A stretch of DNA of 63,222 nucleotides, filler included, from Stramenopiles sp. TOSAG23-6 (taxonomy: Eukaryota), in NCBI GenBank assembly GCA_900128565.1. It is 2 parts of 2 records of this genome, joined end to end, with 100 filler letters (N's around TTAATTAATTAA, not from the genome) between each part and the next. Parts side by side here need not be neighbours in the genome. Positions count along the whole stretch, not along the records: positions 31,841 to 63,222 come from LT635961.1; 1 more part is not named here. One strand, written 5' to 3'. Numbering within the stretch: the stretch's first letter is position 1; each line of letters starts with the position of its first letter. The translations under genes were made by a program, and so were the position numbers. The notes beneath the pieces were generated by a model, which ran no database searches, was not told the DNA's origin, and saw nothing but the letters and a program-made list of their open reading frames with translations. Below are positions 31,741-57,711 of this stretch, one piece after another.

Positions 31741-31840
31741 NNNNNNNNNNNNNNNNNNNNNNNNNNNNNNNNNNNNNNNNNNNNTTAATTAATTAANNNN
31801 NNNNNNNNNNNNNNNNNNNNNNNNNNNNNNNNNNNNNNNN
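31741..31840. other. Artificial contig linker (Ns with TTAATTAATTAA)
   Basis: N-run with a central stop-in-all-frames spacer at 31785-31796. Confidence 0.95.
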
Positions 31841-32019: not shown

Positions 32020-33207
32020 TTACTTTTTTGGCAAACACAATCCTCCAATTGCCATGACAGTCAATATAATTGATGTTGTTACAAAGGTGTAATGAGAATT
32101 ACGCGGAAAAGATTGAGTTCCTGATGAAATATCAGAATTTTCTTTGGACTTTATTTTATCCAAAGATTTAGCTTCAGGGAGGCTCCAATTATCTTTTACT
32201 AATATTTCATCACATGATAAACCAAACCATGAATCCATTTGTGCAACTGCCATGGCATGCATTCCGGTAAAATTTTTCATATACATATCGCATAAACCAA
32301 TAATTAGACGTCTACTGAAAAATTCATATCCATAGTCAAATTTAATTGTGACCATTTTATAAGCACAACAAACTGGACCAGAGTACTCAGCATTTGGTGT
32401 AGTAGATTGTTTACACCAAGTGCCACCTTTTTTGAACGGACCTCTGCCGGTAATGGTACTTGGATGCATTAAAACTGGATCAATGTCAGGAGAGTAAAAG
32501 TGTTTTTTATTCAGAGAACAAATATCAACTGGGACAATTCTACGCTGTTTTAGAATATGCTCTGGTACATTCAGTGCGTTTGATGAGACTCCAACATCAT
32601 CAACAAATGTAGTCTGTACAACTATCTTGAATCTCTTATTTGAGAGATATTTGGATGTTACTACAGATATTAGGTGTGGATAGGAATTCCAAGATTCCTC
32701 TTGAATTATTAAAGCGTCTTTCGGTAATATCTGTTTTAACCAGAAAGGAATTCGACTCTCGATATGAAATTCTTTGACTGAATGGACGCCTTTATTTTGG
32801 GGTACTAGAATATCAGAAATTGTGGATACTAAAGGCTTTGTTTCACTGGAATTTGTGTTGTCATATGGGCAAGGTTTGCCACCTTTGGAAAAAGAAACTG
32901 CTGCTTGATTAGGATCCTCCTCTTCCATATCTGAGTTTACTTTTCGTTCATAATTTCGAGCCATCCAATATTGACCAGGCTCAAAACTTGATACATCAAA
33001 CGGTAATGGTACTCTATATTCAGTATATGATGACGCACTACCAACAGGTACATATCGGTAAGAACTCTTTAAAGTAGAAGCCGGAACCTGCTCGATTGTG
33101 AAAATACTATTCTGCTTTCTATCACTGCTTGAAAAATACAAACCAACAATAGCGATGCAACCCGCTCCCCCTGCACATGTTGCAAGTTGAAAAGCTTTGG
33201 CAACCAT
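32020..33207 (-). CDS. Phosphatidylinositol transfer protein (PITP family) with hydrophobic N- and C-termini
   Basis: TEYRVPLP, FHIESRIPFWLKQILPKDALIIQEESWNSYPH, TGRGP, VCCAYKMVTIKF, QMDSWFGLS. Confidence 0.85.
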   Translation of the reverse strand: MVAKAFQLATCAGGAGCIAIVGLYFSSSDRKQNSIFTIEQVPASTLKSSYRYVPVGSASSYTEYRVPLPFDVSSFEPGQYWMARNYERKVNSDMEEEDPNQAAVSFSKGGKPCPYDNTNSSETKPLVSTISDILVPQNKGVHSVKEFHIESRIPFWLKQILPKDALIIQEESWNSYPHLISVVTSKYLSNKRFKIVVQTTFVDDVGVSSNALNVPEHILKQRRIVPVDICSLNKKHFYSPDIDPVLMHPSTITGRGPFKKGGTWCKQSTTPNAEYSGPVCCAYKMVTIKFDYGYEFFSRRLIIGLCDMYMKNFTGMHAMAVAQMDSWFGLSCDEILVKDNWSLPEAKSLDKIKSKENSDISSGTQSFPRNSHYTFVTTSIILTVMAIGGLCLPKK

Positions 33208-33536
33208 TAGTTCTCTATTGATTCATGATAACATTAGATATTGTTTCGGGATTCATCATTTGAAGCTGCTTTGTACTAATCTAATTTGATTGAATTTTGT
33301 TCGATCTCGAAGTCAAGACAAGAGTCAGTTTGACGCAGTTTGACTCTTTGATGGTGTGAGTTTTGATATTTCGTGTTTCAAAAAAAATTGTTTCTATCCT
33401 GCGCATATCGATTGTCGGTTATTTTGTTTGTGTGTGGAGTGGTACGAGTAGAGCCAAGATACACTTTGGATACTTCGATTCTTTTCGCTTTTTCGAACAG
33501 CCTCTTATATCCTTTTACAATATCAGTCTGGAGCAC

Positions 33537-36500
33537 ATGGAGTGCTTGAAAAAATGTAGTACCTCTAAAAAAGGCACGCACAATGGAACTCAGAAAAACA
33601 CTAAACATTTCTTTGGTGAACCAGTGATAAATAAAAAATCTCCTGATAAAGCCGAACCTTCCACGAAAAAGTATTTAAATGAGCTCAGTGGCGAAGATAG
33701 CAGTGAAGATGAAGGTTGGCTCGGAAGTTCCATTATTGACGCACATCGTGATGCAGTAAAAAAGGCAGATGATAGATATAATGAAGCAATGAAAGATGAA
33801 AGAGAAAAATATAATAAATACTCTCTTATAGACTGCAACATAATCACATCTATGCTTATAATTACAGGAGGGAAAAAACCTGGGGATTTTAAAGCTGAAG
33901 AAAGAGAGAGTATTTGTGCTTGTTTGTTGTCGGATGCCGGGGCAGGACGGTCAATGCATAAAGTTGATCTGCGTAGCCTACGAATTTGGAAATTTCTACA
34001 TTCTAAAAATTGGAGAATTCTGATGTATGTAATTATTTTCTGTCAATTTTATTTGACGATTTTTGAACATCAGACATGGAAAGCAGATAATTTTGTCGAT
34101 GCTATAGCTGAACATAAAAGACAACCTTGGTGTGATGCTTCAAAAATCATAGCTGATAACTTTGTATTAGATACGAGATACTCGTTGAAACCTACGACGT
34201 CTTTGGCTATCGAGTTAACACTATTAATTCCACATGTGATTGATTGCTTTTGTTGGTTTAAAGTGTCACTGTCGCTGCATAGAGATATATGGGTGAAAAT
34301 GAAACTAATGATTACATTTGTAACATTATTCGACATTTTTTTGCATTTGGGGCTAGGTGTTTATTTTTCAACAGTCGAAGGATCAAATTTGGAAACTTCA
34401 ATATCTTCATATTTTCGTATTTCGCGTATATTTAGACCGTTTTTCTTAATATTTCAGATGAAGTCTCTGCGAAATTCGACACTTAAAATAATCGCATCTG
34501 TGAAGGGGATATTTTCTCTGATTGTAGTAGCAATGGTCCTCACTTCTTGTGTAGCTGCAGCTAGTATTGATATATGGCCACCGGCTGTGACAAGCACAGG
34601 TGAAATGTATTTTTCTTCTGTTTTTAAATCCATTGGTTCGTTGTCCGAACTTATGTTTGGTCCAAACGGTTATCCAGATATTGAACTGCCTTCATATACA
34701 AGTGATACCCGTGGAAGTCCAATATTCTTTGGAATCTTCCTCGTTGTCTGTAATATATTTGTGCTACAGCAAACACTAGCCATTGTTTTTTGTGCTTACA
34801 CAGAGTGCAATAAAGCTATTATTTTACATGACAAAGACCGAAAACGAACAGCTGTACTAATTGGGTTTATGATGCTAGATATGGACAACGATGGCAGGGT
34901 CTACAAAGATTCTTATTTAAGTGCTGTAAAAAAATCACGAGAACTTTTAAGGTTGGATAAACATTTAAGCCAAAGCATCGTAGACGAACAAATGATGGAA
35001 TTTTGGGAGACTACTATAGATGAAGAGAATAAGGGCTACATTTCCGATAAAAAATTTCTTTCTCATACAACTGCATTTGTAGGAAAACAATATATGAATC
35101 GAAGAGACAAGGCCTGGTTACTCGCAGGTGATGTTCCTGAGTTCAAAGCTGGTTGGTTGAATGGCGGAAAATTTCAAAAACAACTTCGACCAATACTTTT
35201 AAGTTCCTTATTTTGTTGGTTAATCGATATCATTGTTTTATACTCAATTATTCATGTATTTGTTGTTGCAGCTATGATCATAAATCCTAATAATGACGAC
35301 ATAAACGGGAATACTATGAATGAGCTTTGGATAGAAGCTGCTATGACTTTTTGTTTTACAACTGAAATGGTGGTGACTATTCTTGGTATAGGCATCCATG
35401 GTTATCTCAGAACTCCAGAGTTATTTATTCATTTTATACTTGCCGTGATTCAAATTGTCACATTTTGGTTTATTGCATATCTTGAAATGAACGAGGGTAT
35501 TCTCATAAATCATTTCAATCCAGTGGATATGACATTTAATCGAATGAACAGGTTTTCGCCTTACAGTAAATTGAATTCTGAAAATGGGGCATATTTTTCA
35601 CCGACTTCGATCGTTATGCTTTTAGAGGCTTTGCGGATTACAAGATGTGTACGACTCCTACGGATCACTCGTCATTACGCGGATAGCCATGGCAAATCAT
35701 CATTTATAAAACTTGTCATTAAGACAACTACGAATATCCTTCATAAACTAACTAACATTGCTCTTTATTTTTTCTGTGTTATGTTTATATTCGCTGTTAT
35801 TGGGACACAGTGTTTTGGCGGTAGATTTACAATATATAATTCTTTAGAACTCCAAGATACAGATTATTGGCAACAAGGTTACGACGTGTACGTTTGGGCA
35901 CAACCGAAACCTAAATTAGTTCATGGCGTTATTCAATATGAATGGCCAAAAACATCGACTGAAAGTATCAAATGGCCACATGATGAAAGAAGATGGATCA
36001 AAATTACTGAACCTCCGACAGGGACATTAAGTAGATTGGGAAAACCTTTTTCTGAATGCGATAGAGGGCAAGATTTGCACAGTGTTCAAAATGAAGTTAA
36101 TGACATGAAAATGGGAAATTGTTACATGCATGAGAGAGTATTGTCTTGGTTATACGGAATGAATTTCAATACTGTTCACAAAAGTGTGAAACTCTTGATT
36201 AAAATTATTCTAGTCAACGACTATACTTTTGTATATGATGCATTGATTGCTACTTCTCACGACAATTCTACGAAATGGATGATACTATTTTACATCCTTA
36301 CTGTTCAAGTAGTCTGCACACTTGTACTACTAAACATTTTAATATCAATTTTTTTGGACAACTACACTCAAAAACTTGATGAAGCTTCGAACAATTTTAG
36401 ACAGGACAAAGAACGACTAAAGAAATTGTATCATATGTCAAATTCCACGGATAAACGGAGAAAGTTTAATGAATTGAGCTTCAGGAATTTAATTACTGAT

Positions 36501-37655
36501 CCCTTCACAATGGTTGTTGAAGATCAGCACAAAGATGCAGTTTCTTTAAAGCGCCTTCAAAATAATATTCAGATTATAATGAAAAAGCGACAAGGTATAA
36601 TAATGGATGTAGAAAGGCCAGATGAAACACACAGAAATGATAATAATCAAGTTAAAAGAAAAGAATTCATTTCACCGGCCGCGGAAAAAATTCTAAAAGA
36701 GTTAACGTATTTAGATTTTGATAATTATTCTGATCAAGATGATAAACGTGCTTCAAAACAAAAAACACCCGGTCCTCTGCCAATGGCATCAAAATACATA
36801 TTGCGAGGCATATTTTTACAACATGGTCAAAACATTTCTGTCAGTAGAATTTCAAGTATCATTCGTATCTCAAATGTACATATGAAGAAAAATGGTTCAT
36901 TTTCTGTAAAAGAATTCATTGATGCAATTCCTGCGACACTTGAGAAAATTTCTACTCTACACCATCATGATATTAGAGAGATGCGGAAGATTGAGTCTGT
37001 AGAAGAACAATTTACCGACACTGATACATGGATCCATGGGAATAGATGTCGTCTTTGTAATGTTCCGACTTCTAATTCATACAAGCAGATACTTTTGTCA
37101 ATCCTACCTGTAAAATATCAAAACAAAAGATTTAAATATGTGTGTTACGCATGTCTAACTTCAGTTTGCGGTAGTTGTTCAGCCCGTCGCTATATCCCTA
37201 ATTTGTGTATTCCATGCATACATGGTAGAAAAGAGCATGAACACGTATATTGTGCATTCGAATCCCAAAGAATATGTTCATTGTGCTATAACTCGTACAA
37301 GAAAAATTTAGCAAACATCGCAAAAGATGAAATTGATTTTCAAAAAAAGAGAAAGAAATCCGCTATTAGAATCAATCCTGTAGGCCGCGATGATAGCGAG
37401 AATGAAAACTTGAAAGCAACTCCCATTGGTATTGCGTCAGCTAAAAATAATGAACTTAAACCCAGAATTAATACGACTAGTGAATCTAAAAATCTATTAA
37501 ATTTACATGAAGGAATTGCTCTGGATATTCCCGAAGAGAGTAATTGCGACGGAAACCAAAATTCCCGTTTAGAAGTAAATACTAAGGACGACGACTCACA
37601 AAACAAAGATCATCGAATGAATTATAAATTGGAGGCCAAATATGCCGATATATAA
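33537..37655 (+). CDS. Two-pore channel (TPC)-like cation channel with an EF-hand linker and a C-terminal FYVE-like zinc finger
   Basis: Two 6-TM blocks; S4 segments RISRIFRPFF and LRITRCVRLLR; pores YFSSVFKS..GYPDIELPSY and NFNTVHKS..LVND; EF-hand LDMDNDGRV. Confidence 0.82.
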   Translation: MECLKKCSTSKKGTHNGTQKNTKHFFGEPVINKKSPDKAEPSTKKYLNELSGEDSSEDEGWLGSSIIDAHRDAVKKADDRYNEAMKDEREKYNKYSLIDCNIITSMLIITGGKKPGDFKAEERESICACLLSDAGAGRSMHKVDLRSLRIWKFLHSKNWRILMYVIIFCQFYLTIFEHQTWKADNFVDAIAEHKRQPWCDASKIIADNFVLDTRYSLKPTTSLAIELTLLIPHVIDCFCWFKVSLSLHRDIWVKMKLMITFVTLFDIFLHLGLGVYFSTVEGSNLETSISSYFRISRIFRPFFLIFQMKSLRNSTLKIIASVKGIFSLIVVAMVLTSCVAAASIDIWPPAVTSTGEMYFSSVFKSIGSLSELMFGPNGYPDIELPSYTSDTRGSPIFFGIFLVVCNIFVLQQTLAIVFCAYTECNKAIILHDKDRKRTAVLIGFMMLDMDNDGRVYKDSYLSAVKKSRELLRLDKHLSQSIVDEQMMEFWETTIDEENKGYISDKKFLSHTTAFVGKQYMNRRDKAWLLAGDVPEFKAGWLNGGKFQKQLRPILLSSLFCWLIDIIVLYSIIHVFVVAAMIINPNNDDINGNTMNELWIEAAMTFCFTTEMVVTILGIGIHGYLRTPELFIHFILAVIQIVTFWFIAYLEMNEGILINHFNPVDMTFNRMNRFSPYSKLNSENGAYFSPTSIVMLLEALRITRCVRLLRITRHYADSHGKSSFIKLVIKTTTNILHKLTNIALYFFCVMFIFAVIGTQCFGGRFTIYNSLELQDTDYWQQGYDVYVWAQPKPKLVHGVIQYEWPKTSTESIKWPHDERRWIKITEPPTGTLSRLGKPFSECDRGQDLHSVQNEVNDMKMGNCYMHERVLSWLYGMNFNTVHKSVKLLIKIILVNDYTFVYDALIATSHDNSTKWMILFYILTVQVVCTLVLLNILISIFLDNYTQKLDEASNNFRQDKERLKKLYHMSNSTDKRRKFNELSFRNLITDPFTMVVEDQHKDAVSLKRLQNNIQIIMKKRQGIIMDVERPDETHRNDNNQVKRKEFISPAAEKILKELTYLDFDNYSDQDDKRASKQKTPGPLPMASKYILRGIFLQHGQNISVSRISSIIRISNVHMKKNGSFSVKEFIDAIPATLEKISTLHHHDIREMRKIESVEEQFTDTDTWIHGNRCRLCNVPTSNSYKQILLSILPVKYQNKRFKYVCYACLTSVCGSCSARRYIPNLCIPCIHGRKEHEHVYCAFESQRICSLCYNSYKKNLANIAKDEIDFQKKRKKSAIRINPVGRDDSENENLKATPIGIASAKNNELKPRINTTSESKNLLNLHEGIALDIPEESNCDGNQNSRLEVNTKDDDSQNKDHRMNYKLEAKYADI

Positions 37656-37699
37656 AATTGAAACATACTACATTTTATTTTCATAATTATGCAAGTTTC

Positions 37700-38122
37700 T
37701 TATATAAACATTGATACAAGCAAGTAACAAAAAATAACAGATGCTGTGTCGACGAAGTCACGAATACTTTTGTTACATGGTCTTATATTTAGTTGGTGGC
37801 GCATGCTGTATTTTTCACTTGACCATTCTTCCTCGTCATCTCTTTGAATATTATACATACTACGATTGTAACAGCGACAATCTTCTGTGTCATCCTCGAA
37901 TCTTAATCCTGTGTAATAGCAGTTATAAACGAACTGGGTGCCCGATGGAACGTTGGTTCTACAGTCAGCATTTACCTTGCATCGCTTCACCCCAGATTCT
38001 TCCAATAAAAGAGACCGATCATTGAAAATATTTGAAGCAGTGACATGAGGCATAGATTTAATTGCCAAACATGTGATAATAATAAGTAGTAACATGTGCC
38101 TTTGGTGTTTACTTAATGTCAT
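37700..38122 (-). CDS. Small secreted/membrane-anchored Cys-containing protein
   Basis: N-terminal signal-like segment, CKVNADC...CYY...CRC, hydrophobic C-terminus; no family recognised. Confidence 0.55.
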   Translation of the reverse strand: MTLSKHQRHMLLLIIITCLAIKSMPHVTASNIFNDRSLLLEESGVKRCKVNADCRTNVPSGTQFVYNCYYTGLRFEDDTEDCRCYNRSMYNIQRDDEEEWSSEKYSMRHQLNIRPCNKSIRDFVDTASVIFCYLLVSMFI

Positions 38123-38275
38123 TTATGTAGTATTACTGTGACAGGTGCAATTTAGTGTTACATGAATGCTGACGTAGTGCCTTCTCCTCAATACGGTTTC
38201 ATTTTTTCTTACGGAAAGTTCGTCCGTAGTACGTTCTCAAACTTGAACCCATATGTAGATATTAGGCAATAGTTG

Positions 38276-39553
38276 ATGTTTTTCTCACAGATTGGCGAAG
38301 ATGCAGACAAATTGCTGGAGTTATTTTATCCAACAACAAGCATTGGAGTTGCTTTGTACGATAGTACAGGACAATTTACAGTTACCGCTCAAAAGGCTTT
38401 ACAAAAAATTATTTTTCCTGAAAAATGGCGTGAACTCTCAGATGCCGATGGTAACAAATATTACGAAGATTGTGCAACAGGAATAACAACATGGACAAAG
38501 CCTTTATGTGATGAACATGACGAAAACATCTCCAACCCCGATACAATATGTCTTACATTCCAGCCTATAGACAGTTCTTTTGGTTTTTCTCTTTCAGGAG
38601 AATTTCCTACAAAACCTTTGAGTTTTTGTACTTGGGGAGAATATTGTGGTTTTCCTGGCACTTTTACGGGTAACCTTACATGGCAGCCAAAGAAAGCAAC
38701 TTGTCTGGAAATGTATTACGCTGGAATTCAAGTAGAAAGTCCTTTTGTAACATCTATTGTAGAAAGAATACAATATCTTGCGAATAAAGTAGCTGATAAT
38801 CAGTCTAGTCTTATGATATCTCCAGCCACAACACTTGTAGTAAATCAAAGAAATAATCCTTCCAATAATGTAGATATAAACATATGCCATGCATTAACTT
38901 TAACTATGTCTGATAATTGGATACGTGATGTTTCCTGTGGAGTATCCTTCAAAAACAAAGTGTATTTTTCTTCTATTGATGAGAATAGTTATGGTAGTAA
39001 TAGTGAGAATTTTTTTGTAACAAACTCGTCTTCCGAAATGAATCAATATCGACCATTCGCAGAGTGTTCCATGGGTACTCAACTAAGAACCAATTTAGAT
39101 ACAGTAGTTAGCATGAACGCAACATTAAATGTCAAGGATTCAGTAAATTCAAGTAATGATTTCGTAGTTGAGAAACTTAGTGTAAGAACTTCGGTATTCG
39201 CTTCACCTTGTAAGGGATTTGTCATAGCAGCTGCTTGGGATATTGATAAAAAATCATCTATAATAGCATCACTTCCTTTGTCAAATATTAGTATAGCTGC
39301 AAAATGTTCTATTGATGAAATTACTAATGCTTACTATAATAATGATGATAATACAAATAGTAGTAATAATACAAATAGTAGTGATAATACTTCGAACCCG
39401 GTTGTTTCACTTGTTGCAAATATCACAGGAGAAATTGGTATGCGCTTTTCTGGATCAATACCATCATTGCCTCTACATGCTGAAGTTGTTGTACGGTCGA
39501 ATATTTTACAATCTGGAAGTCCTAATTTCGGAGTGAGTCTCACGACTGGATGA
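38276..39553 (+). CDS. WW-domain protein, possibly a divergent VDAC/porin-like beta-barrel
   Basis: WW domain WRELSDADGNKYYEDCATGITTWTKP. The N-terminus FFSQIGEDADKLLELFYP and C-terminus NFGVSLTTG resemble VDAC ends. Confidence 0.6.
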   Translation: MFFSQIGEDADKLLELFYPTTSIGVALYDSTGQFTVTAQKALQKIIFPEKWRELSDADGNKYYEDCATGITTWTKPLCDEHDENISNPDTICLTFQPIDSSFGFSLSGEFPTKPLSFCTWGEYCGFPGTFTGNLTWQPKKATCLEMYYAGIQVESPFVTSIVERIQYLANKVADNQSSLMISPATTLVVNQRNNPSNNVDINICHALTLTMSDNWIRDVSCGVSFKNKVYFSSIDENSYGSNSENFFVTNSSSEMNQYRPFAECSMGTQLRTNLDTVVSMNATLNVKDSVNSSNDFVVEKLSVRTSVFASPCKGFVIAAAWDIDKKSSIIASLPLSNISIAAKCSIDEITNAYYNNDDNTNSSNNTNSSDNTSNPVVSLVANITGEIGMRFSGSIPSLPLHAEVVVRSNILQSGSPNFGVSLTTG

Positions 39554-39820
39554 ACTAAAATGAATATAGGACTAGTACCGGGTACTGTCGGCTGTGCTGT
39601 AAAATTCAATGTTTCAGATTTTCGAGATTTTCGAGATTATGACACGACACTGTGGCCAAACATTTGTGTCAAGAAAGACGCACTGATTATTGATTGATAA
39701 TTCAAAAGTTGTCACTCCATTGTGAAGAAAGCTAAATTACTCCCACTGCTTCAGAAAATATCCCTGCAAAGGAACTAGAGATTGTGAAAAAGGCCATCCC
39801 TTAACTCTCGATAATTGAAA

Positions 39821-41643
39821 ATGAGCATGTCTTCTCGCCAGCGCCACTCTAAGGTACGATATTGTTTTGCTGACACAAAGCATTCTGATGTGTATACTGG
39901 CCTTCCTGCAACTCGTGGGGTAGGTGATCATCAAATGATGAAAGCCAACTCTAAATTTTTTGCTTATGGATTTGATGCACCAGGTGGGCCCCTCCTGGTG
40001 TGGCCGCATGAAAAAAAAGGCAAATTTTCTCGTCAACAGATATTCCTTGGCCATGGTCATTCCGATTCAATTATGGATATCGACTTTTCTCCTTTCAATG
40101 ATAACTTATTGGCCACAGGTTCTAGAGATGGTACCATCAAACTCTGGCAACTTCCGGATAGTGGAACATCTGAAAAAAACATCAAACCCATAACTTCTCT
40201 TGATCAACATTCTAAACGTGTTTTATTTACTAAGTTTCACCCAACCGCCGAGAATGTTTTTGCAACAGCAGGTTCAACACCTTCAAATGAGTTGTTCATT
40301 TGGGACATTTCGCGTGGTGAGCCAACCCTAACATTTGACTTAGAGTTACACTCTTCACAAATAGAAGATTTGAAGTGGAACGAAAATGGGTCTTTACTTT
40401 GTACCTCTGATAAGTCTTGTATAGTACGCATGTTCGATCCCCGTGCCCTTGCTGTGGGTAGTGAACCAGTCGTTTCTTTCAAGCCACATCAAGGACATCG
40501 TCCTATCAAGGTCTCTTTCATTCCAAAATTTGATCGCTTCATAACTTGTGGGTTTACTAAGTCTAGTAAACGTGAGATGAAATTCTGGGATCCACGAAAT
40601 CTTGATAAACCTATTCAAAAAATTGCTATGGGACAGTCACCAGCTGTTTTGTATCCTTTCTTTGATCAAGGTACAAATATTCTGTACGTATGTGGTAAAG
40701 GTGAAAACGCCGTGCATCTCTATGAGGTAGTAAGTGGAACTGAAAATATTGTTCACTTGTCCAATGTGAATGGAATCGAATCATCGAAAGGATGGTGTAT
40801 ATATGTTTTCATCATGAATTTCAATTTTTGTTTTCGTACCAAATTTTGTACCTAACAAATTTCATTTTGTTTTTTTCACAATACATGATGCCGAAACGAT
40901 CTTGTGATGTCATGAAACATGAAGTAGCGAGATGTTTAAAACTAACACGTAATGGTGTTGAATCTATGCGCTTCAGAATTCCTCGTAAATCTCGTGATTT
41001 CCAGGAAGATCTCTTCCCTGATGCACCTTTCCCATTAAATCCTATGTCAGCTGATGATTATTTTTCTGGTAAAAATAAGGATCAAGAACTTAGTTCTTTA
41101 GATCCTAAACAGCGTACGGATGCATCAGGTGGATCAGTCTTTGTTGCAGCTAAAACATCTACAGAATTATCTGTCGAGTTGGCTGCTGCAAATGCAAAGA
41201 TAGTCAAATTGGAAAAAATGAAACTTGAACTTCTTGCTAAATTGAAAGCAAAAGGAATTACACCTTTAAAAATTACTCCTCCGCCAGCTCCTGTGATTAA
41301 AAAAACTGTTGTTGTTCCGCCAGCTCCTGTGTTTAAAAAAACTGTTGTTGAAAAAGTTGTCGCTCCAGTTGTTGTGAAGACAGCAGCAGCTACATCACCT
41401 CCAGTAGTTAAAAAGATTTCACCAGCAAAAGAAGTAAAACCTGTCAAAAAAATGCAGGTTGTCAAGAAGGCAGCATCGCCGAAGAAGGAAGTAAAACAAG
41501 AGAAAAAAATTAAAAAAAAGACTGTCATGAAAAAAGCAGACTATATGAAAGAAATATCGAATATGTGTAAAGATCTTGACCGAAGCGATGTTAAAAAAAT
41601 ACACGTCCTGGTGAAAGAGATCTGGGAAGCTGATGGTAACTAA
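39821..41643 (+). CDS. Coronin; exons 39821-40800 and 40887-41643
   Basis: SKVRYCF, GHSDSIMDIDFSPFNDNLLATGSRDG, LYPFFDQGTNILYVCGKGE; after splicing, KGWCMMPKR..HEVARCLKL..RIPRKSRDFQEDLFP; coiled-coil tail. Confidence 0.92.
40801..40886 (+). mobile_element. Introner-family intron, AT-AT (or AT-AC if shifted 2 nt), 86 nt
   Basis: TGT AT|ATATGTTTTCATC...TTTTGTACCTAAC...TTTTCACAATACAT|G ATG CCG AAA CGA. No AG occurs inside. Confidence 0.85.
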
Positions 41644-41776
41644 TTCCTCTTTGTGATCCAGTAATATGCTTTGTCTCTAATTTATGTAATGCTATTTAGT
41701 AGTACACGAAATATTCATAGCGACGTAACGGTATACATCTAAAAAACAGCTACAAAATAAAATCGTTTTTCTCAAT

Positions 41777-42418
41777 TTATTTAAGATCTGATACACTCAT
41801 ATGACTCGCTAGAATAATATCCATTCTCTCTGTGGCCACTTTGCTTATCATCGAGTTCAGAACAAGATTACTTTGTCGTAATTCAGTTTTGACTTTTTGA
41901 AGTTCCCTTAAATGCCTTGCTTCGATTTCTTCTAGTTTTTGAGTATATTTTCTTTTTTCGTCTACTCTCACTCTACTAATGTCATCTTTTAATTTTTTTA
42001 TGGTTGCATCTTTATCATCTATAATATCTCGCTTCAAAATAATGTCTGTTTTTGATTTGGAGTGAGATAATTCCGATTCATATATACGACACAACTCATC
42101 CAAATCAGACATTCTATTTGCCCGTGATTTTGCACTGGCTGCCTGTAATATACATAATTCTTTTTGTGCAACCTTTAACTGAGATTGCAACGAAAGCAAT
42201 TCTGTTTTCACTTTTTTTGTTTTAGTTGTGATTGTTGTACGATCGCTTACAAGAGTATCTATTTCATCCCGAGCAAATCTCTCCAAACACTCCGAACGTG
42301 AAAGTCTTTTATCTGAATTTAATTGACGTAAACTAGCCAGTCTAAGTTGTTCTTTTAGAATCTCAATCTGGATTTCGGGTGTAACCGCATCTGGGCATTC
42401 TTTGCATTCAGTCTGCAT
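41777..42418 (-). CDS. Coiled-coil protein of unknown function
   Basis: 213-aa ORF with heptad-like, E/K/L-rich sequence. Confidence 0.65.
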   Translation of the reverse strand: MQTECKECPDAVTPEIQIEILKEQLRLASLRQLNSDKRLSRSECLERFARDEIDTLVSDRTTITTKTKKVKTELLSLQSQLKVAQKELCILQAASAKSRANRMSDLDELCRIYESELSHSKSKTDIILKRDIIDDKDATIKKLKDDISRVRVDEKRKYTQKLEEIEARHLRELQKVKTELRQSNLVLNSMISKVATERMDIILASHMSVSDLK

Positions 42419-42672
42419 TATTAACTAACATGAAATTTCGAAAAATTCAGAGTTAGCATATATATTCTGCAAATAAAAATGGCTTTTATGGTCTTTCCCA
42501 CTTGTGCCAATAATGTATACGTTAAAAATTATGGATTAATTTTATTTCCTTCTTGCTTCGTTTCGGGGATCCATATCCCCGAAACGACCGTTATTAAAAA
42601 TTGTCGAGTCTTGAGTAGACGTAGTAGGTAGGACTGTCTTAAAATAATTAAACTTTAGATTACAATAGTAGT

Positions 42673-44721
42673 ATGCGTAAAATGACGAACCCCCCACCAA
42701 CACCACAGGTCACAATTGAAGATGTTGAATCTGAGGATGAACCTCCATTGATGCCGCACGAGTTAGTTCCAGCAAAAAAAGCGCACTCAAAAATTTTAGA
42801 AATCCGCCAAAAGTTTACAGCGTTAGATGCTGATAAATCTGGTTATCTTGATATTGATGCAGCTCGTCAACTCATGATTGCGTTGGAGATACCATCAACA
42901 TACGACGTCCAGAAAAGTTTTTCTGAGATTGATATAGGAGAGCAAGGCAAATTTTGTGTGGATGAATTTATTTACTGGTACCGACTAAGGTTTCCTATAG
43001 ACCCTGAAGATGTAATCAATAATCTACGATATATTTTTAATATGTTTGATGAAGACGGTAATAATGAGTTAAGCAAAAAAGAAGTTCGTAAAGTTTTAAA
43101 GAAAATGGGTGTACAAGTTTCTACAAGAGTTTTTCGACGTAAGGGAAAAAAAAGAATGAGAGATATATTCAAATTGATGGATATTGAACATAAAGGGACG
43201 GTATCATTTTCAAATTTTCTTCAGTGGCATAAACGAGAGTATCAGCAACTCCATGCGTGGGAAGTTGAAAATAATACTGAACACGTTCGTACTTTAGAAA
43301 CAGATGTCGTGATTCGTAATGAAAGTAAAGTAGATCCTTCGCTTGGAGAAACCACGGGAAAAAACGTGTTAAAAAATGAAAAAGATGAAGCAATAGAAAC
43401 GGCAAAACGACGGATACCACAAATCAAACAAATAATGGGAAACATCGAAAAAAAAATGACAGAAGAAAAAGGTGTACTCAACACAGAAAAAAAGATATCA
43501 GAAAATGAACCACCACCACCGCCACCACCGCCAATGGTACCCACAGAAAAAAATATGACAGAAGAAAAAAACAAAAAGAAAAAAGAACCAGTAGAGACGG
43601 CAATAAAAGAGATACCACAAGATGTATCACCACCACCACCACCACCACCACCGATGGTACCCACAGAAAAAAATATGAAAGAAGAAAAAAACAAAAATAA
43701 AAAAGAACCAATAGAGACGGCAATAAAAGAGATACCACAAGTTGTATCACCACCACCACCACCACCGATGGTGCCCACGAAAAACAATATGGCAGAAGAA
43801 AAAAACAAAAATAAAAATGAACCAATAGAGACGGCAATGAAAGAGACATCAGAAGCCATAGACAAAAATATGCCTGAAAGTGAAGCTGTTGTGTCTTTTG
43901 ATGTAGGCTCCAGCGAAGCAGGTGAATCTGTTATTTTGATGAAAAACAAGAAGAACATAGAGACGGAAGGTGAACCCGAAGAAAACAAATGTAATAATGA
44001 CGAAAATAGTACCAAACAAACGCAAGTATTTAATGACATACAAAAACGAAAATTGAATATAATTTCTAGAGATTCTGCTGTTAAACAATTTCAAAACATC
44101 ATTTTGCATCTACATGAATATGATTCTGACCATTGGTATGAGCCTCTCAAAAAAAGCTTAGAATGTTGCAAAGAAGTAGGTATGTCTGGTTATGAAGTTT
44201 TCAAACATTTAAAAACTTTGGATTTTAATAGTGAAAATCCAACTGAATATAACACCGAAATTAAAACTACTGAAAATTCATCACAATTACAGTCCCAGGA
44301 AAAAGATATAGTGGAAGAGAAACCCATTCATGAACTGGTTCGATGTATTTCGCCAAAGAATGAAGAGAAAATCATTATAAAGAATTTGGAAACTAGTGAA
44401 TCCATAAATCCTTTGTCTAAAGCCAAAGCGATGCGTGAGTTAATAAATTTACACATTGCATTAAAAGTGAATCTTAGATATCAAACTGTCGGAGAGATAG
44501 AAAGTTATATAATGGCAGATGTGAATACAAAGACTCGATATATAGAAAAAAATATTTTGCAGAAAAAAATCACAAAACTGGCACGTTTAACTTCTCATGA
44601 AAGTTTAACGCTTCACAAAGTTTTCAGTGTCGATGAAAATGGTATGACTTGTGTAGACGATTTTTTGGCGTTCATCAAACTTCCCAGCTCGCAATTAGTT
44701 TCTTCAAGTGAAATGTTATGA
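42673..44721 (+). CDS. EF-hand calcium-binding protein with Pro/Glu/Lys-rich repeats
   Basis: EF loops DADKSGYLD, DEDGNNELS, DIEHKGTVS; three poly-Pro repeats. Confidence 0.8.
   Translation: MRKMTNPPPTPQVTIEDVESEDEPPLMPHELVPAKKAHSKILEIRQKFTALDADKSGYLDIDAARQLMIALEIPSTYDVQKSFSEIDIGEQGKFCVDEFIYWYRLRFPIDPEDVINNLRYIFNMFDEDGNNELSKKEVRKVLKKMGVQVSTRVFRRKGKKRMRDIFKLMDIEHKGTVSFSNFLQWHKREYQQLHAWEVENNTEHVRTLETDVVIRNESKVDPSLGETTGKNVLKNEKDEAIETAKRRIPQIKQIMGNIEKKMTEEKGVLNTEKKISENEPPPPPPPPMVPTEKNMTEEKNKKKKEPVETAIKEIPQDVSPPPPPPPPMVPTEKNMKEEKNKNKKEPIETAIKEIPQVVSPPPPPPMVPTKNNMAEEKNKNKNEPIETAMKETSEAIDKNMPESEAVVSFDVGSSEAGESVILMKNKKNIETEGEPEENKCNNDENSTKQTQVFNDIQKRKLNIISRDSAVKQFQNIILHLHEYDSDHWYEPLKKSLECCKEVGMSGYEVFKHLKTLDFNSENPTEYNTEIKTTENSSQLQSQEKDIVEEKPIHELVRCISPKNEEKIIIKNLETSESINPLSKAKAMRELINLHIALKVNLRYQTVGEIESYIMADVNTKTRYIEKNILQKKITKLARLTSHESLTLHKVFSVDENGMTCVDDFLAFIKLPSSQLVSSSEML
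43508..43845 (+). repeat. ~120-bp coding tandem repeat, 3 units (PPPPPPMVPTEKNM..EPIETAIKE)
   Basis: Repeated units visible in both DNA and translation. Confidence 0.85.
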
Positions 44722-44830
44722 AATTGTTTCCACAAAGATAAGATTTTGTAATAAAATATAAGCCTAAAAATAAAGCCAATTTTTTTGGGCTCTCTGTGTA
44801 ACTTATAAAGGATTTATTTTTTATATTTTT

Positions 44831-47800
44831 TTAATCTTTTTCTTTCTCCCCGGCTTTGTCTATTGTCAATAAAATAGCTGTGCCATTATCTATCCATTTC
44901 GAATGTTTATCCATCGTGTTCATTGTTGCAATAAATTGGAATTCCGAGACTCTCTCATTCGATAAGTATACAGGACATTCAAAAATATCATCATTGTTCC
45001 GAAGATATCCAGCTTCGATTCTTTTCCACTTGGGATTAATACGAATTGGGCGTATAAGCATAATTGGTAATCTGAAAAACTTTGTGTTTGTAATTGAATC
45101 GTCCAAACATCCTCCATATTGAGAATTGCCTATACTTTCTATATCACTACTGGTTGGCTTCTCCCAGCTAGCGCCAATTAGATACATATCATGTGCATAA
45201 CTGCCTCCCATATCTGGATGTTCATTAATGTTTTCAGTGTTAGAATACACAGTAACTTTAGTTTCTAATGTAAATGCTTCAATAGGGTGATTTTGCTCTT
45301 TAGCGGCGGATTGTAATATTGCAGATAAATATTTTTTCGGTGCAAATAATCCACCGAGCCAAATAGAGACTGGGCGCTCCATTTCACTCACCCATACATT
45401 CAATTGATCAACTCTAGCAAGTACATTATCCCACCAGTCAGTTAGTGATTGCTTCCATTTCCATGATAATTGAATCCACTGGTATGGTACTTTTTTAGAA
45501 AATATAGTTTTTATAATTTCAACGAGTTCATCTGTCATATTAATCTTATTATCAAGCGCAAGAGCTATTTCATCCAACGATTTCTTGAGTTTTCCCAAGA
45601 AAATGTTCATCTGCAAGCACTCCTGAATGGCGAATCTCGCATAAGGTGCATTCACATCATCCATAAGAACTGGCTCAGCTGCAATGTTTACATCATTCAT
45701 GTTGAATTCTCGTGGCATCTTCGCAATTAGAACATCAATCTTCTCTTTGACATATTTCTCTCGATCCTTCAACAACTGAAGACTCTTTGATATTTTCTCT
45801 TCTACCGGTGGTTTACGTTTTGGTGCACCATCATTGTCGGCTACATTATTAGAATTGCCGTCACTGGTGGATGATAATGCTCCGGCTGTCTGGGCTTCAT
45901 TCTGATCAAACTGTAATTTTTCGATTAGCTTTGAATGGGGTTGCATTATAATTTCACTTCCAAAAATATGCATCCCGTTTTTACAAATATATCCAAGTTC
46001 ATCCACGAGAAGATTTCGCCCTGAATTTTCGTGAATGCCAAATGAACTAGAATTTGTGACTGAAGGTAAATTATCAGTAATGTGCTCTAAATAATCTTCA
46101 TATTCTGCGCTAGCGTTGTCTAATGATGGGAAGTCTGGTAAAATATCACATTGCTCAAATAGTTCAGCGACAAACATTTTATCTAAATAATTTCGTGTAA
46201 TACGGAGATCCCAAAAATTACTCATATGACCTCCATACACCAACTCAGCAAAAATGTATCTCAGTTCTTCCCATGGAATTGAAATCTGTTTATCGAGATA
46301 TCGTTCCATGATATTGATACATGTACCAAGGTCTCGTTTATTGAATCGATAATTGTTACTCCAGCCAACAGACCCATATCGCTTTCTACCAACCAAAATT
46401 GCATGAAGAGAACATAGCGCAAAACTCAGTGCTTTGAACTCGGTAGGCTTCTCAGCCTCAAGAATTCTTTCTGGTGGAATTACCGACCAAGCTGATCTCA
46501 TTATATGTGGTAACTCATTAGGTTCGTCATTGCAAACTTGTACACATTCTCTAAGTAAACTCTCAGGCAAAATTCGTCCAATTTCAATAACACTTGCTGG
46601 TGTTGTATTCGTATTAGACTCATTTGTTGATATAGAGAGCAAAACCCGGAAGTCTTCGTGGGCTTGACTTGTAACTGATTCTAATATCTCTTCGAGGCGG
46701 AGAAAAGTTTCCGGGACCAAATGTAAATTTTGTAGCAATATCCATCCACCCTCTTTGCCAAGCCTTCGAATCTCTGTTTCCATAAAATCTTGATTATTCC
46801 CGCCGAGAGCAATAACCACAAATTTTCCATTGGATGGTGTAAAATCAAGTTGTGATGACATTGCTTCCACCCATGCAGTGGGGTCTTGACCTGGTACTAA
46901 CACAAATAAAATTGGATTACACGATCTACTCTTTTCGTAAAGTTTCTTCATTGAAAATGAAGTATGTTTTACATATTCTGGGCCTAGATTAGATTCGATA
47001 CAAGCTAGTATCATGTGTTTTGCGCGATCAGGACGAAGTGTTTGGATAAGCAAAATACGATCGAAATAGTCCAAATTTTCATACGGCTCTCCACCGGGGA
47101 TCACTTCATTTTCTGGTTCGGCACTGAAATACCAATCAAACCATTCTTCACTGTCTGCTTGCATGTGTGATGATATGTACCTATACTCTGAGAACTCGTT
47201 TAATGCGCATACCTTGGCCCATGCTTCAGTTGATAACCAACCGCTAATTTGACCCATTTCACTTGGATTGGGATTAGATGGCGAATGAAGTAAATGCTCC
47301 AATTTCTTTGGGTGAATCTTTCTACTTATAGCCATAACTTTGCAGAAAAAGAGGAGTGCAAGTGTAGTATGGTCGTGATTATATATTGATCGTTTAACAT
47401 CATTAAAAACAAAACTCGTTACCTTGTCTTGCATAACTATATTCTGTTCTTCTATTTCATCATCATCAAGCATTCCAGGTGTCGCATTTGGCATAAATAC
47501 ATTTCGAACGTTCTGTGGTGTTGGCAAACGTGCGGCTCGTAATAAATCAACACCCCAAATATAGCGTAATGTTGACTCAAGTTCACTACCGGCTACACGT
47601 TTTTTCTTGTCGAGTGACCTCGAGCCTCCACTATTATTTCCACTGGAAGATTTATCTAATGCTCGTGCAAATGTAATTACAAAAGAGTTCAATGAAAACA
47701 CATAATTAGGATTTATCTTATGAAGATCGCTCAGTAGCATAAAGATATTAGCACCACGCTCGGCGACTGGTCGGTACTTCTCTATAATTTCTTCCAGTTG

Positions 47801-50800
47801 AGTGGCAGTTGATTCAACAATGGAAAGCTTTTGTTTTGCACTTTTTGCTGCAATTTTTGCACGTTCAAGAATATCAACAATTTCTTGGTCCTGGCAGACA
47901 TCAACCTCCGCGTCGGCTAGTTTCTGTAATATTAGTGATTGAAGTCCTGCTAGCTGAATCTTTGATGTTGAACGTTGAATTGTATTGTTGGCAAACCTCT
48001 CTGCAATATCTGGTCTTTGTTTCCGAATTACGACGGCTAATAATTGTTCTTCCAAACACTCTTGATTTACTGTAAAATCAACGAAAGTACAAGCTCCAAG
48101 TATACTATCAGAAAATTTAGGATTGCTTAAACGAGTTGCCATATATAGTCGAAATGATCCGTGCATCTCAAATTCCGATCCACCCAATACTACATAATTT
48201 GTATTGCCTCTCTCATGTATCCTTTGTTTAATCAAGTTCATCAAGATTGGTGGGAATTCTTCTTTCACGCCCTCCAAGAGAACAATTTGACCCTCCTCGA
48301 GGGCACCACTTAATATTTGCACGAATGCTTTCATCCCTATACGTAGATACAAGATATTACTCGATGGTTGTTCATCACCTGTACTTGCATTTGTGTTTTT
48401 CGTTGATTCGTACCGAGATTTAATCCAATGTACAGCTTGCAACTGAGGATCTAAAAGAAGTGGCCAGCGTTTGCTTTTTCTAGCGATAATTGCATTTTCA
48501 ATTGAGGATCGATCGTTCGACAATGTTTCAGAAATAAGTTTGTCTTCATATTCATCACTAAGTAAAGCATACGCAGGATTGACAACCGTGTTCAAAGATA
48601 TGTTAATCTGAGAGTTTCTCAAAAATGGCAGCCATGTTTGAGATAATAAAGTCCAGCGATGTTTAGTATCAAAAGGACCTACAAATGAAACAAAAGCAGA
48701 AGCTAAAGTGACATCACCAACCAAGTAATCACCATAGTTCTTAATCTCTTTTTGTTTTTGAAGCCATATGTCTTCTTCATCAAAAAGTGATCGGGCGAGT
48801 CTTCGAGCTAGCTTAAGTTTTGTCCGCCCAACAGTGAGCTTCATCACAGCGTCATCTTTTTCCTCTTCGGCAGACTCAAAATCTTTATTAAGTTGATTCA
48901 GAACTAATTGCATATCTTTAAGTTCTACTGTTCGATTATTAAGATTTTTATTTGCCTCCGCGAGATTTTCTGTTGCTTTTGCCAATGCTTCCCGCAATGG
49001 TGCCGTCGAAATGTAGACGTCATAATATGCTACAATGTTAATTACCCATGAAACTAATATCCCTGCAGCAATATTTCGCGACGAGATAAGATCAACATCA
49101 AAATACTCATTTTCGATATATTGCCGAACTTCTTTCATGTTAATGGCAGGGATTTTCATGTCATGTAAAAGTTCTTGATATCCCTTGAGTTTTTCTATAA
49201 ACACATTAATATTAGGCAACAAGGTTTTTATACACATTTTCCATGAACGATCGCGAATACGCCCACTTGAATCCACCCCATCAGTGATGTGAACTCCTGC
49301 AAAGAGCACCATAATCGCAGCAAAAACATCATCAACTCCCTTAGGAGGATCTTTTAATGTTTTACAAACACCCAGATCTCTCTTATCAATAGTTTCTGCA
49401 GCAATCTGAGAACGTACAAGTGCTGGCTCTCCTTTTTTAAGCTCTCCTTCGCACATTTCCCTCTTTGCGTGTGCGTCTTTTTGTACATTGGTACATATTT
49501 CTTGCTCCTGGCTGCATTTAAGACTTGCAAAGTCAACAAGAGACTTTTGTTCCGATACTTTAACTGCCAAATCTTCAGCTTCCTTTTTCTTTTCTTCGGC
49601 AGCTTCTTCCAAGAACTCCATATTATCTTCGATCTCGCCGACATCATTCTTTGTCCTTCGAAGTTTATCAATGCCAATTTTCAAACGCTCAGTATCCGTT
49701 TCTACAGCGGCTGACTTCGTTTTTAAACCATGACGTAAACGACGAAGCATATCAATATAATCTAGTGGTGCTATGTATACATGTCGTTGTGTATTCTCAA
49801 AATAAGTTTCCACCATTTCGGTGCTGCTACTATATACTAGTGGGATAAATTCTTCAACAACTTTAGCAGCTTTAACTTTATCCTCCCCAAATTCTGCAAT
49901 ATAGTTTGGCTCATCATCTTTTTTATCATCGCCCTCTTCACCACCTTCAACTTGATCGTCGATAGATTTTTCCTCCGTAGGTGCAGCCAGAAACATTTGA
50001 GATATTTCTTGTAAAGTTGATACAGGCCATGATCTAAACCAATCTATTGTTGGGCATAAAAGTAGGCTCGGAAATCGTTTTGCTCGGGGCGAGAAATCAG
50101 GTGTAGTCGGAGACATGCACAAGATAACTTTGACATTTTTCTTTACTTTACCGATGAACCAATCCCATGACATTTCGTTGTCTATTGTAAGAACACGAAG
50201 TTCTGTTTTAGCTTTTGCCATTACATCTGTAATTATTGCATCTTTTTCATCTTGGGGATATAAATCTTGTATTTCACAAGTGCTTATTAAATCAGATATA
50301 ATCAATAGGATATCATCATTTCGTAAATATTCCTCGGTCAATAAAAGTACTTGCTGTTTATCAGGGGCACCAGCAAGGACAAACATTTCTTTGAGGCGTT
50401 CCTTAAGCCCTGTTGCATTTTCAGAGTCTAATGCATGTATGGGCATATTATTCATATGACAAGCAATTCGAGCAAGGGATTGTTTTCCCGTACAACCATG
50501 ACCAATGAGACACACGTGACCTTGTCGCTGCAAAAGAATTCGTGTTATACGCGTGATATGTGACATGGCATCATTAAATAAAATCAAATCAATCTTTGGT
50601 TCATGTTTGTTGTGCTTTTCTACAGCTACAGATAGTTGCTCTCGAAGACTTTCCCAAGTAAGTACCGAATCATACACTTGTTCGTCAAGACTCTCCGCAT
50701 AATGAAAGTAGCACAATGGCTCTGTTTGTGCCTGATTAAAAAATGGCTCGAACGCCATCTGAGGAAAAGATTTCTTCGCAGTTTTGAGAACATAACTTTT

Positions 50801-53800
50801 GTATTGCCAGAAATCTCCAGAAGTTTGCATCATATCACCATACGCACGGTCACTCTCATGCAGCCATAATGCGATTAATTTTTCAAAATTTCCAAATTCT
50901 TTTTGATTTGACATTAGCATGCCCTTGAAAAGATGCGACATATTCCGAATAGACCAACCAAAATGACAATTGATAGGAGTTTTGCGGAAGTTTTGAACAA
51001 CTGCTTCGTGAACTTCTACAGCAGCTGTAACTATTGATTCGGATAAGGATTGGCATTCTGCATTAAAACGGCGAAGATGTGCATCTAAGAAAGTTTTAAA
51101 TAATATTGTTAATGATGTGCCTGATAAAATAGGAAGGGATAAAAGGGTAAAATGGCGTTGCATACGAACTCCCACTGATTTGGATCCCGCAAATGGATTT
51201 ACGGAACCAATATATACTACATTCTCGATGTGTTTTTTCTCTAATTTTGAAGTATCATACCAGTATCCGTACTCTATATGTTGCCTCAAAAGTTCGTGTA
51301 TAGATTGGGTACCGTATTGATCAGGCTGAGGCAAACTCAAATCATCTAAGAAATAAACACAATCATGACCACCCGGAGGGGCATATCTATTTTCCCCCCC
51401 TTTTACTAGAATATGTTCTAGAGGAGACTTCAGATTATCTGTGCTGCTATAATAATTGCAATTTAATCGTATGTGCATCGTTTCATTTTTGTCTTGTTTT
51501 TTGCACATATCTTCAAGAATTGCAGACTTCCCTGTTCCTGACGGACCGATTAATAAAAACCCTCGATTAGATGAAATCATCTTCTGTCCCCAGAAACTGA
51601 TTGGGCAGGTCTCAGGAACCGGTACCACAACTTCTGAAATATCTGTAGTAACAGAATCAAAAGGCACACTAAAAAATTGAGGTGACCTATTCCATAGTTC
51701 AAAAACATTACTACCAGGATTAAGCCAGTAGTCAAATACAGTTTCACGCGCCGGAAATTTTACACGATCAAAATCTGGATATTTCTTCCAGAATTCACTG
51801 AACTTTTTGTCCCAATTGTTACCTCTTTGGTATCCGGAATATCCACCAAATGACCAAACCATGCAATAAATAAATGTTTTTTCAACACTGTTTGTAACTG
51901 CTGAGACGTCGCCCACCAGCATATCAGGTTTTATCATACTCGAGAACATTGCCAGAAATGTGTTAGCCGAACCAACAGCAGAAAATGGTAATAATGTTTT
52001 AGAGCTCTCTAAATATTGTACTGTTGGTTCCACGTAAATGCTAACTAGATTTGCGAGTGCGTCTTTTGCTTCCTGTTCCACATTCTGATGTTGTACCCAT
52101 GAGGCGAATATACTTCTCCATTGAGCTCCTTCTTCAAGCGATATCCATATTATCGTCGATCTTCCTACTGTTGAAGGGGATGTATTTTCGAGACTATTGA
52201 CTTCAAATATCACTCTCATGTAAAACTTTAGATGTATTCTTTCATTGCTTTGAAGAATAAGTGTCTTGCTATTATCCATTAGAGCATTCAACGATTCAGC
52301 CCACCCTGCATCTATTTCACCATCTACAATTAACCATTTTGGTTCTTCGTCGCGAATACCTGCCAAATGCCTCAAAGCTTTTGGAAGCAGTCCTTCTCCC
52401 CACTCATGAGATTCATTATCTATAGAACCCAGTAATTCTGAAACAGTCACGGCCTTCGGGTTTATAACTTGTACATTAAGCTCCTTTAGCTTTCGAGCAC
52501 GTGCGAGAGATTTCCAACATTCTGTTTTACCACAACCGACACCACCCATCAGCAATACTGTATGCGAGGAATCAAGTGCGTCGCTCAAGTCAGAGCAACG
52601 CCCTAAAAGATATTCCTCGGGCCATAGATCACGTTCCATTGCAGCATTCGCTATGGCGTTTTCCAAATCAAGATCTTTTGATTCCTCGGGTTCTTCTCCT
52701 GGGAATATGTCTGAAAGAATTCTATCAAAAATGTCCAAGTCATGAGTTTTTAATGTTGGGATGCAAATACTTTTGATGGACTTCATAACTACAGAGTTTT
52801 CTGACATATTTTCATTGTTCCGTCGCACTGATGATGCAAGCATTAAAATATTTGATGCTACTCGAAGCCCCCAGGCATAATGTCTTTCCTGGGCCAATAA
52901 ATCCTTCATCATTTGCATGACAATATCAAGTTTTCCTGCTAAATCTTTTGCAGACTGAAACCCAGAAGACATCAATAAGTTCTCATAAATAATTTGACTA
53001 TCTGGCTTGTAAAGAGTTATAGGGCGTAATAATATACGGAGATTATCTGGTAATTCGACACGACCACGATAAGATGGATTCACATTTAAAAATATCGCAG
53101 ACGTTGACTGTAGTCGTATTTGACTCCCTTCTATATTAACAGTCTTTTGGTCGCCTCTCATAGCATTGAGTAATGCCTTATATTGCAACGAACACACAGA
53201 AAGTACATTTAAGGGTAATCGATCAAATTCGTCAAAGCAAGCCCAGGTTCCACTAGCTGCGACGCCTTTAAATATTTCAGTTAGACTGAGGTAATCAAAT
53301 TCAGGCGAAAAGTTAAAAATAAAGGAAGGCTTTGCCATCGCAACTGCGATATCACATGTAGTAGAAGTTTTCCCTGAACCGGAAGGACCAACTGACAAGC
53401 ATCCCATTTTTGAATGCATTGACTGTGTCATTGATAAATATACACGATTTGTCAAGTTGGTAACAACAAGGCGTGCCCCATTACCCACATATTCAAACCC
53501 ATAATTAAAACTAGCGTCTAAAATACTAACAACCGCACCACTCTCAGGCGAGTATTTGTATCTCAGCTGTTTACTCCATTGAAAACTTACTGGGGAAACA
53601 GTATTAGTCTGAACTAAATTGTGTGAAATATCTCGGTAGTGTGCCCCTTTCACTATCATCGCTTCAACTCTAAATCTATCGCAAATGCTTATCTTGTTTC
53701 GGACTATGAGAATCATATCTGATAACTGCTGGTGACATAGCCGCAATACACTATTTAGAGCATTCTTGTCACCACTAGACAGCCCTTTGAAAGCTTTTTC

Positions 53801-57520: not shown

Positions 57521-57711
57521 ATTGTTTTATGATGATGGCGAAATCTCCAAGGAATTAGATCTTAAAGGGATATATCATATATATAAAACTTCAACGGACG
57601 GAAGGTGTAACTGTAAAAGATGACACACTTCAAACTTTGGTCAAAAGCTACTAGCTACTATATATAAGATACTATAGGTATGCTTATGGAAGCAAAATTA
57701 TTGTGAAAACA

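Follow-up and report, generated by a model that had tools for sequence, protein, structure and literature searches.

A coronin gene is interrupted by an 86-nt element, at positions 40801-40886 (+) of the 63,222-nt stretch of DNA analysed here (the window), that behaves like a U2-type intron yet fails the GT-AG rule, and that has several features of introners. The best explanation, to which we give a probability of about two thirds, is that it is a GT-AT family intron removed by the major spliceosome, in which an 11-base match to U1 sets the donor and therefore relaxes position +1. On this explanation the major (U1/U2) spliceosome would excise 40801-40886, a copy in which the first G of a GT-AT family member had mutated to A. 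The donor would be recognised through the long U1 match and not through GU, with three changes in U1 complementing CAU/GUACGUUU; an unchanged U6 ACAGAGA box would read donor positions +4 to +6; and the 3' end would be set by the branch motif together with a conserved module ending in YAT.

The DNA around the locus is about 35% GC, gene-dense and eukaryotic over the whole window, and the sequencing runs that contain window DNA are marine. Exon 1 of the coronin gene (39821-40800, +), an open reading frame for the WD40 propeller, ends in TGT AT, and exon 2 (40887-41643, +) lies in an open reading frame running from 40744 to 41643 and is covered by RNA contigs. The exon 1 protein is 72% identical to P0001, the closest protein found, which reads KGWCCLPKRSCD; its best named match is a Hondaea coronin-like protein (38% identical), which points weakly to stramenopiles. 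P0001 lies on an intronless contig (L111), a single contig of 2058 nt that is possibly a transcript, and in JGI metagenomes coronin relatives were found at 1 locus out of 146 candidates. The element itself starts ATATGTTTT at 40801 and ends ATACAT, with CACAATACAT at 40886, in agreement with a preliminary description of this DNA that had reported neither GT nor AG at its ends; the range 40797-40886 given there is the union of alternative introns, the element proper being 40801-40886. No AG occurs inside it, the first AG after the branch motif being at 40923, and its excision gives a single open coronin frame through KGWCMMPKRSCD. The donor (-3 to +8, 40798-40808, +) would pair with the organism's own U1 at 10 of 11 positions, two of them as G-U, with +1 as the sole predicted mismatch. 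A competing GT stands 4 nt 5' of the favoured donor (40797-40798, +), and the exonic AT at 40799-40800 (+) is a direct repeat of the final AT of the intron, resembling a target duplication. Further downstream, a branch-like motif, TTTTGTACCTAAC (40844-40856, +), would place the branch A at 40855, 31 nt before the intron end. Its CCTAAC has one extra C relative to TACTAAC, the GUAGUA of U2 is unchanged, and the motif is presumably used as the branch site. The conserved 3' module, TTTTTTCACAATACAT (40871-40886, +), has a YAT end replacing YAG.

Assembled contigs from 4 of the 21 listed runs, X3 (DNA) and X6, X7 and X9 (RNA), were compared with positions 33000-45000. Removal of the element from mRNA, as expected for a substrate of the major spliceosome, is seen in one RNA contig of 336 nt (depth 3.18) from the polyA metatranscriptome run X9. 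This contig skips 86 nt, joining 40511-40798 to 40885-40932 with 0 differences, leaves the GT at 40797-40798 unused and reads WCMM. It had been proposed earlier that removing 86 nt restores the coronin frame with WCMM, and that cDNA would distinguish WCMM from WYMM; the one bridging contig and the open frame bear this out. No pieces bridging the joint were among those listed for X3, X6 and X7. Runs with a small share were given no weight. The joint slides over 2 places, such that 40799-40884 (AT-AC), 40800-40885 and 40801-40886 (AT-AT) all fit, and cDNA is unable to tell AT-AT from AT-AC because the flanking 2-nt repeat yields identical mRNA. In DNA, the X3 piece 40835-41981 carries the 3' 52 nt of the intron continuous with exon 2; the listed X3 pieces stop at 40471 and restart at 40835, with 40801 outside them. 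Two runs of the probable source sample contain 1.00 of the sampled words and represent one single sample. The X9 contig comes from another population, and its template allele may therefore have had G at +1 or have been intron-free.

The spliceosomal RNAs suggest how such a donor could be defined. U5, U2, U1 and U4 lie head to tail on one strand within 640 bases (G000:C1146:9-645), separated by a few bases each, a cluster that is doubled on contig C6122, and U6 lies apart on C3740. The sole U1 detected in the genome (E 7.5e-12; 54 bits, below the 69.5 curated by Rfam) starts AAACGUACAUG against the standard AUACUUACCUG, its 5' end being AAACGUACAUGG and that of the Rfam consensus AUACUUACCUGG. 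Three U1 bases are changed, at positions 2, 5 and 9; opposite them lie donor positions +7, +4 and -1, which are the three departures of the family from AG/GUAAGUA, and the changed 5' end complements the family donor CAU/GUACGUUU exactly when G is taken as +1. This putative changed U1 is presumably expressed and would perform donor recognition. The branch-pairing GUAGUA of U2, the ACAGAGA of U6 and the U5 loop are standard in this genome. Across 155 G-start donors the mean pairing with the organism's own U1 was 9.6 of 11 at the G-first register and at most 5.8 in any shifted register. Mean duplex energies with this U1 were -9.9 kcal/mol for G-start (n=174) and -4.5 kcal/mol for A-start copies (n=62); with a standard U1 they were -1.8 and +0.4 kcal/mol. 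By these computed energies a donor with A at +1 would bind its own U1 better than a family donor would bind standard U1, which would leave +1 relaxed. At coronin itself the pairing score (of 11) is 9 from 40801, 7 from 40797 and 6.5 from 40799, and only 40801 offers TGT at +4 to +6, which fits the ACA of U6, 40799 giving TAT. Predicted pairing with both U1 and the U6 ACAGAGA box is what a major-spliceosome donor would have; the termini, AT...AT in the favoured register, are not the GT/GC-AG of that class.

A search of the incomplete assembly for a standard U1 found none: ACTTACCTGG matched 24 times and controls 21 times, and none of these matches was recognised by Rfam. The textbook donor AG/GTAAGT, a poor fit to the changed U1, persists in a non-family GT-AG intron of a CDP-alcohol phosphatidyltransferase-like gene at 14631-14812 (+), and for this reason a standard U1 may be absent merely from the incomplete assembly. 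Prp8 is present, and a stretch of 200 residues near the alpha-finger (human 1418-1617) is almost identical to the human protein. A changed Prp8 in that region was considered and set aside, as none was seen in the 200 residues, the difference being mainly one short surface segment. The search for U1-C (zf-U1) gave a single match, within a 509-aa frame.

The coronin element belongs to a family of numerous similar copies in unrelated genes. The 12-mer branch core matches the 21.1 Mb assembly exactly at 8139 places against 5 for the control, and donor plus branch motif together have 4439 matches, comprising 4234 G-start (control 0) and 205 A-start matches (control 1); these counts are inflated by doubled and inverted contigs. 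In the DNA fetched, 254 of 593 branch-motif candidates passed matrices that scored +3 to +11 and -16 to -3 and left the terminal pairs unscored. The 148 copies unselected for A start had the termini GT-AT in 107 cases, GT-TT in 8 and AT-AT in 7, with GA-AT (5), GT-GT (5) and GC-AT (3) rarer. Copies with GC, GA, GG and TT starts (L032, L056, L073 and L163) keep their frames, from which it follows that +2 is relaxed too. AG and AT ends are interchangeable within the family because some copies end in AG at the usual AT position, as at 4832-4953 (-; GT...AG) and L160:1039-1151. A target site duplication, as expected of an introner or MITE, is seen in copies without an AT end: the two bases upstream equalled the last two of the intron in 24 of 50, against a shuffled mean of 3.6 and maximum of 12. 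Inverted repeats at the ends come to only about 4 nt (GTAT...ATAC), overlap the splice signals and are broken at +1 in the coronin copy. The family is presumably of mobile origin. The exon base that follows a family intron is G in 80 of 148 copies and the base at -3 is often C, which suggests a CAT^G target or a splicing preference.

Within the window, further family copies are found in a leucine-rich-repeat gene (3615-3708, +; GT...AT), in an actin-related gene (22677-22773, +; GT...TT with TT upstream), at 28059-28162 (-; GT...AT) and, with a variant branch motif, at 19247-19339 (-; GT...AT). A tubby-like gene has a longer GT...AT copy (5062-5206, -) and one with a tandem-duplicated 3' module (4492-4638, -). 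In the latter the duplicate spans the branch-plus-acceptor module and the first exon bases, and the frame is kept only by the distal AT end, the proximal end (4557) meeting a stop. Words resembling the branch motif but with no matching donor occur in coding or intergenic DNA at 1950-1975, 19058-19091 and 29590-29615. The motif had 0 matches in viral contigs.

Copies that start with A are numerous enough to be studied as a class. DNA was fetched around 80 of the 100 listed A-start places, and 62 distinct AT-start copies, some from other loci, passed the filter. Among A-start copies removal restored the frame in 59 of 61, and among G-start copies in 162 of 174; when one or two further bases were removed as a control, 89 of 253 and 81 of 253 passed. 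A leave-one-out count was made on de-duplicated sites from 112 loci (725 kb, with overlaps): the base at +1 varied in 12 of 148 copies (11 of them to A), that at +2 in 7 of 143 and that at +5 in 16 of 152, while only 1, 2 and 1 copies varied at +6, +7 and +8. By the counts of 12/148 and 16/152, +1 is no more fixed than +5. Since +5 shows the same excess, the excess of A over C or T at +1 may be plain G-to-A mutation bias. We also considered whether the A-start copies form one subfamily. The nearest neighbour of an A-start copy was itself A-start in 21 of 62 cases against 16.0 when shuffled (p 0.14), and both subfamilies contain them; repeated G-to-A mutation after insertion is probably the simplest origin. 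Compensation for the A start by better pairing elsewhere was likewise rejected (8.39 in A-start copies against 8.60, p 0.23). An exonic AT is rarer before A-start copies (31/62 against 116/174, p 0.023).

The base at the other end of the intron is not independent of the first. Genome-wide, 11 of 44 family introns ending in AC are A-start against 4.6% overall (odds ratio 7.2, p 3e-6), or 10 of 40 after doubles are removed, and in the local set a C end is found in 8 of 62 A-start and 3 of 174 G-start copies. In yeast splicing the first and last intron bases are described, in the available text of the source, as forming a non-Watson-Crick pair, G-G or A-C (PMC11585973). The association of A(+1) with C(-1) fits this first/last-base rule and marks these two positions as termini. 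In the coronin copy itself the terminal pair would be A(+1) with U(-1). The coronin copy is one example of this class and not a special case. Its description as the best test of how the donor is defined was overstated, because the AT repeat hides its register and about 200 other A-start matches exist, many of them with unlike flanks, for which cDNA by itself would fix the register.

Which base comes first was approached through other copies of the family. In A-start copies a 2-base left shift produced stops in 2 of 28 informative messages and the chosen register 0, one informative copy being that in L124 (AAA domain), through a stop. Over all copies, 83 mRNAs were changed by a shift of -2 and 7 stops appeared in them, against 1 in the chosen register, from a mis-called donor. 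A copy in a G-alpha gene ends in AG at the usual AT place, with AT upstream, and here the G-first register gives Trp, as in solved G-alpha chains, where left shifts give Gly. A codon-phase test gave no signal for register at any of six measures (p 0.2-1.0), and a Pfam scan of 76 exon pieces placed no A-start junction within a residue-level conserved motif. AT-AT at 40801-40886 is probably the true register at coronin, with 40801 as the likely first base.

These results bear on several other accounts of the coronin element. One is that the intron is 40799-40884, an AT-AC intron that is either a substrate of the minor spliceosome or of the U2 type. The mRNA is identical, as the preliminary description had said in offering this option, the alignment labels the joint AT..AC, and U2-type AT-AC introns exist according to the accessible parts of two papers (PMC1557818, PMC11585973). 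That register has, however, the lower U1 match (6.5 against 9), a poorer fit to U6 and A at +5, and the same 2-base shift introduces the stops noted above in other A-start copies; taken together these leave it distinctly unlikely. The U12-type AT-AC donor consensus is RTATCCTT. The U12-type donor ATATCCTT is absent here, 40799 reading ATATATGT and 40801 reading ATATGTTT, and judged by its donor the coronin intron is not U12-type. U6atac was not found in the incomplete assembly, where a control search was also silent. Another account is use of a normal GT donor, either in 40797-40882 (GT-AT, WYMM) or from 40797 to an AG at 40924 or 40927. The computed duplex with the organism's U1 is slightly better there (-4.9 kcal/mol at 40797 against -3.6 at 40801), and the GT-AG forms are in frame. 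Against it, the X9 contig matches the exon to 40798 and again from 40885 with 0 differences, which contradicts the GT-AT option put forward earlier; the GT-AG forms would remove the PKRSCD stretch shared with P0001, and P0001 has C following W. We consider a donor at 40797 very improbable, though it may serve a minor isoform.

It might also be argued that the A at 40801 arose privately in the source cell, by mutation or through faulty amplification, and that the population has G or an intron-less allele from which the RNA contig derives. No independent read covers the position among the compared runs, the assembly contains Ns as well as contigs that are inverted or doubled, and the 8 nearest relatives of the coronin copy among 236 copies are all G-start. 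An error would nevertheless not tie an A start to a C end, and A-start copies make up 4.6% of the family while +6 to +8 vary at about 1%; the X3 DNA, moreover, carries the 3' 52 nt of the intron joined to exon 2. This account is unlikely, and the A-start class stands even if the coronin A is an error. Much the same doubt that attaches to a donor at 40797 attaches to non-spliceosomal removal through paired inverted ends, as has been proposed for the non-conventional introns of euglenids. The family does end in short inverted repeats (GTAT...ATAC), and the two ends of the coronin intron are paired in its computed fold. Yet the fold z-score is -0.02, copies with A at +1 show no matching gain of T at -3, the partner of that base in the inverted repeat (12/62 against 28/174), the branch motif is on the sense strand, the five major snRNAs and Prp8 are present, and U1 matches the donor. 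The chance that this is how the intron leaves the message is very small.

Comparison with known systems helps to place the favoured reading, that of a GT-AT family intron spliced from 40801 by the major spliceosome. In Entamoeba and Mastigamoeba the 5' ends of U1 have co-evolved with atypical donors, and the U1 found here has the same ACGUAC core as that of Mastigamoeba and, like that of Entamoeba, an extra A for +7 (10.1101/2022.06.08.495308). In the portion of that report available to us the donors of those organisms keep GU, and no change facing exon -1 is described (10.1101/2022.06.08.495308). Here, by contrast, C9 of U1 has also become A, opposite the exonic U; most acceptors are AT, and the introns are a repeated family of which about 5% are A-start. 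The family resembles the introns of Fritillaria borealis and F. pellucida, as far as the available text on these describes them, in use of the major spliceosome, in non-AG ends, of which 3' AT is the commonest there, and in having a YAY repeat that precedes the donor and recurs where the intron ends (PMC13326754); a transposon-linked origin would also be common to both (PMC11282704). The ends in Fritillaria are, however, diverse (AG-AC, AG-AT and others), whereas the signals of the present family are uniform, and the Fritillaria U1 copies have identical 5' ends and a divergent U1 is described as not its route (PMC13326754), while here U1 matches the donor. The same text points to duplicated U2AF and m6A (PMC13326754).

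Introners of Micromonas and others, in the accessible account of them, also comprise thousands of similar introns with a short target duplication and short inverted ends, and like them the coronin copy is missing from the orthologue of a relative, here the L111 contig that is possibly a transcript (PMC11282704). Those introners supply or co-opt GT/GC and AG, where the present family mostly ends in AT (PMC11282704). AT-AT termini are on record, in the part of the source available, as 12 U12-type cases in human and mouse, and the accompaniment of A(+1) by C(-1) is shared with minor-spliceosome and U2-type AT-AC introns (PMC1557818). The recorded AT-AT introns are U12-type and rare (PMC1557818); the coronin intron has a major-type donor (ATGT at +3 to +6), and the class of which it is a member numbers about 200 matches. 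Among the literature matches listed, from which subscription journals are largely absent, there was no report of a GT-AT family or of a changed U1, and a word search of one 2026 preprint on protist single-cell genomes found neither.

The interest of the system lies in the combination of the U1 match with a relaxed first base. The G at +1 is treated as all but fixed in introns of the major class, since it pairs first with U1 and later, during the second step, with the final G. In the coronin gene the +1 G and the last G would both be dispensable, in an organism whose Prp8 stretch is near-human and with the spliced message found in the sea. The change in U1 offers a concrete and testable reason for the relaxed donor, and would add a third lineage to the few in which U1 is known to have co-evolved; the A(+1)/C(-1) bias suggests that the first/last-base rule is still operating. 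A broader proposal is that this protist re-coded its only U1 to a mobile intron and its target duplication, including the exonic U at -1, such that donors are set by the 11-base match and not by GU, and that its major spliceosome excises, as a matter of routine and with accuracy, hundreds of introns that have neither GT nor AG. We advance this tentatively, rating its chances at somewhat below even. If true, a mobile element and a core splicing RNA would here have co-evolved in nature, and the terminal pairs that the family already contains (G-U, A-U, A-C and G-G) would form a ready-made series for testing the second step. A gene finder that insists on GT-AG will, in this protist, break genes in their thousands.

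Some minor observations concern the assembly and the distribution of the family. The spacer of N at 31741-31840 of the window joins contigs C10 and C11, and C11 begins within a family intron; many contigs break at family copies, and there are several (C2, C4 and C13/C14) that are inverted or exactly duplicated. Family copies are absent from 44831-61701, where a frame of 1348 codons and a dynein-heavy-chain-like frame of 4231 codons, with Kelch repeats at its N-terminus, are found; some genes on C13 and C18 hold ten or more. At 1-774 of the window there is a 300-nt exact direct repeat, with a spacing of 474, in a cysteine-rich protein of surface type.
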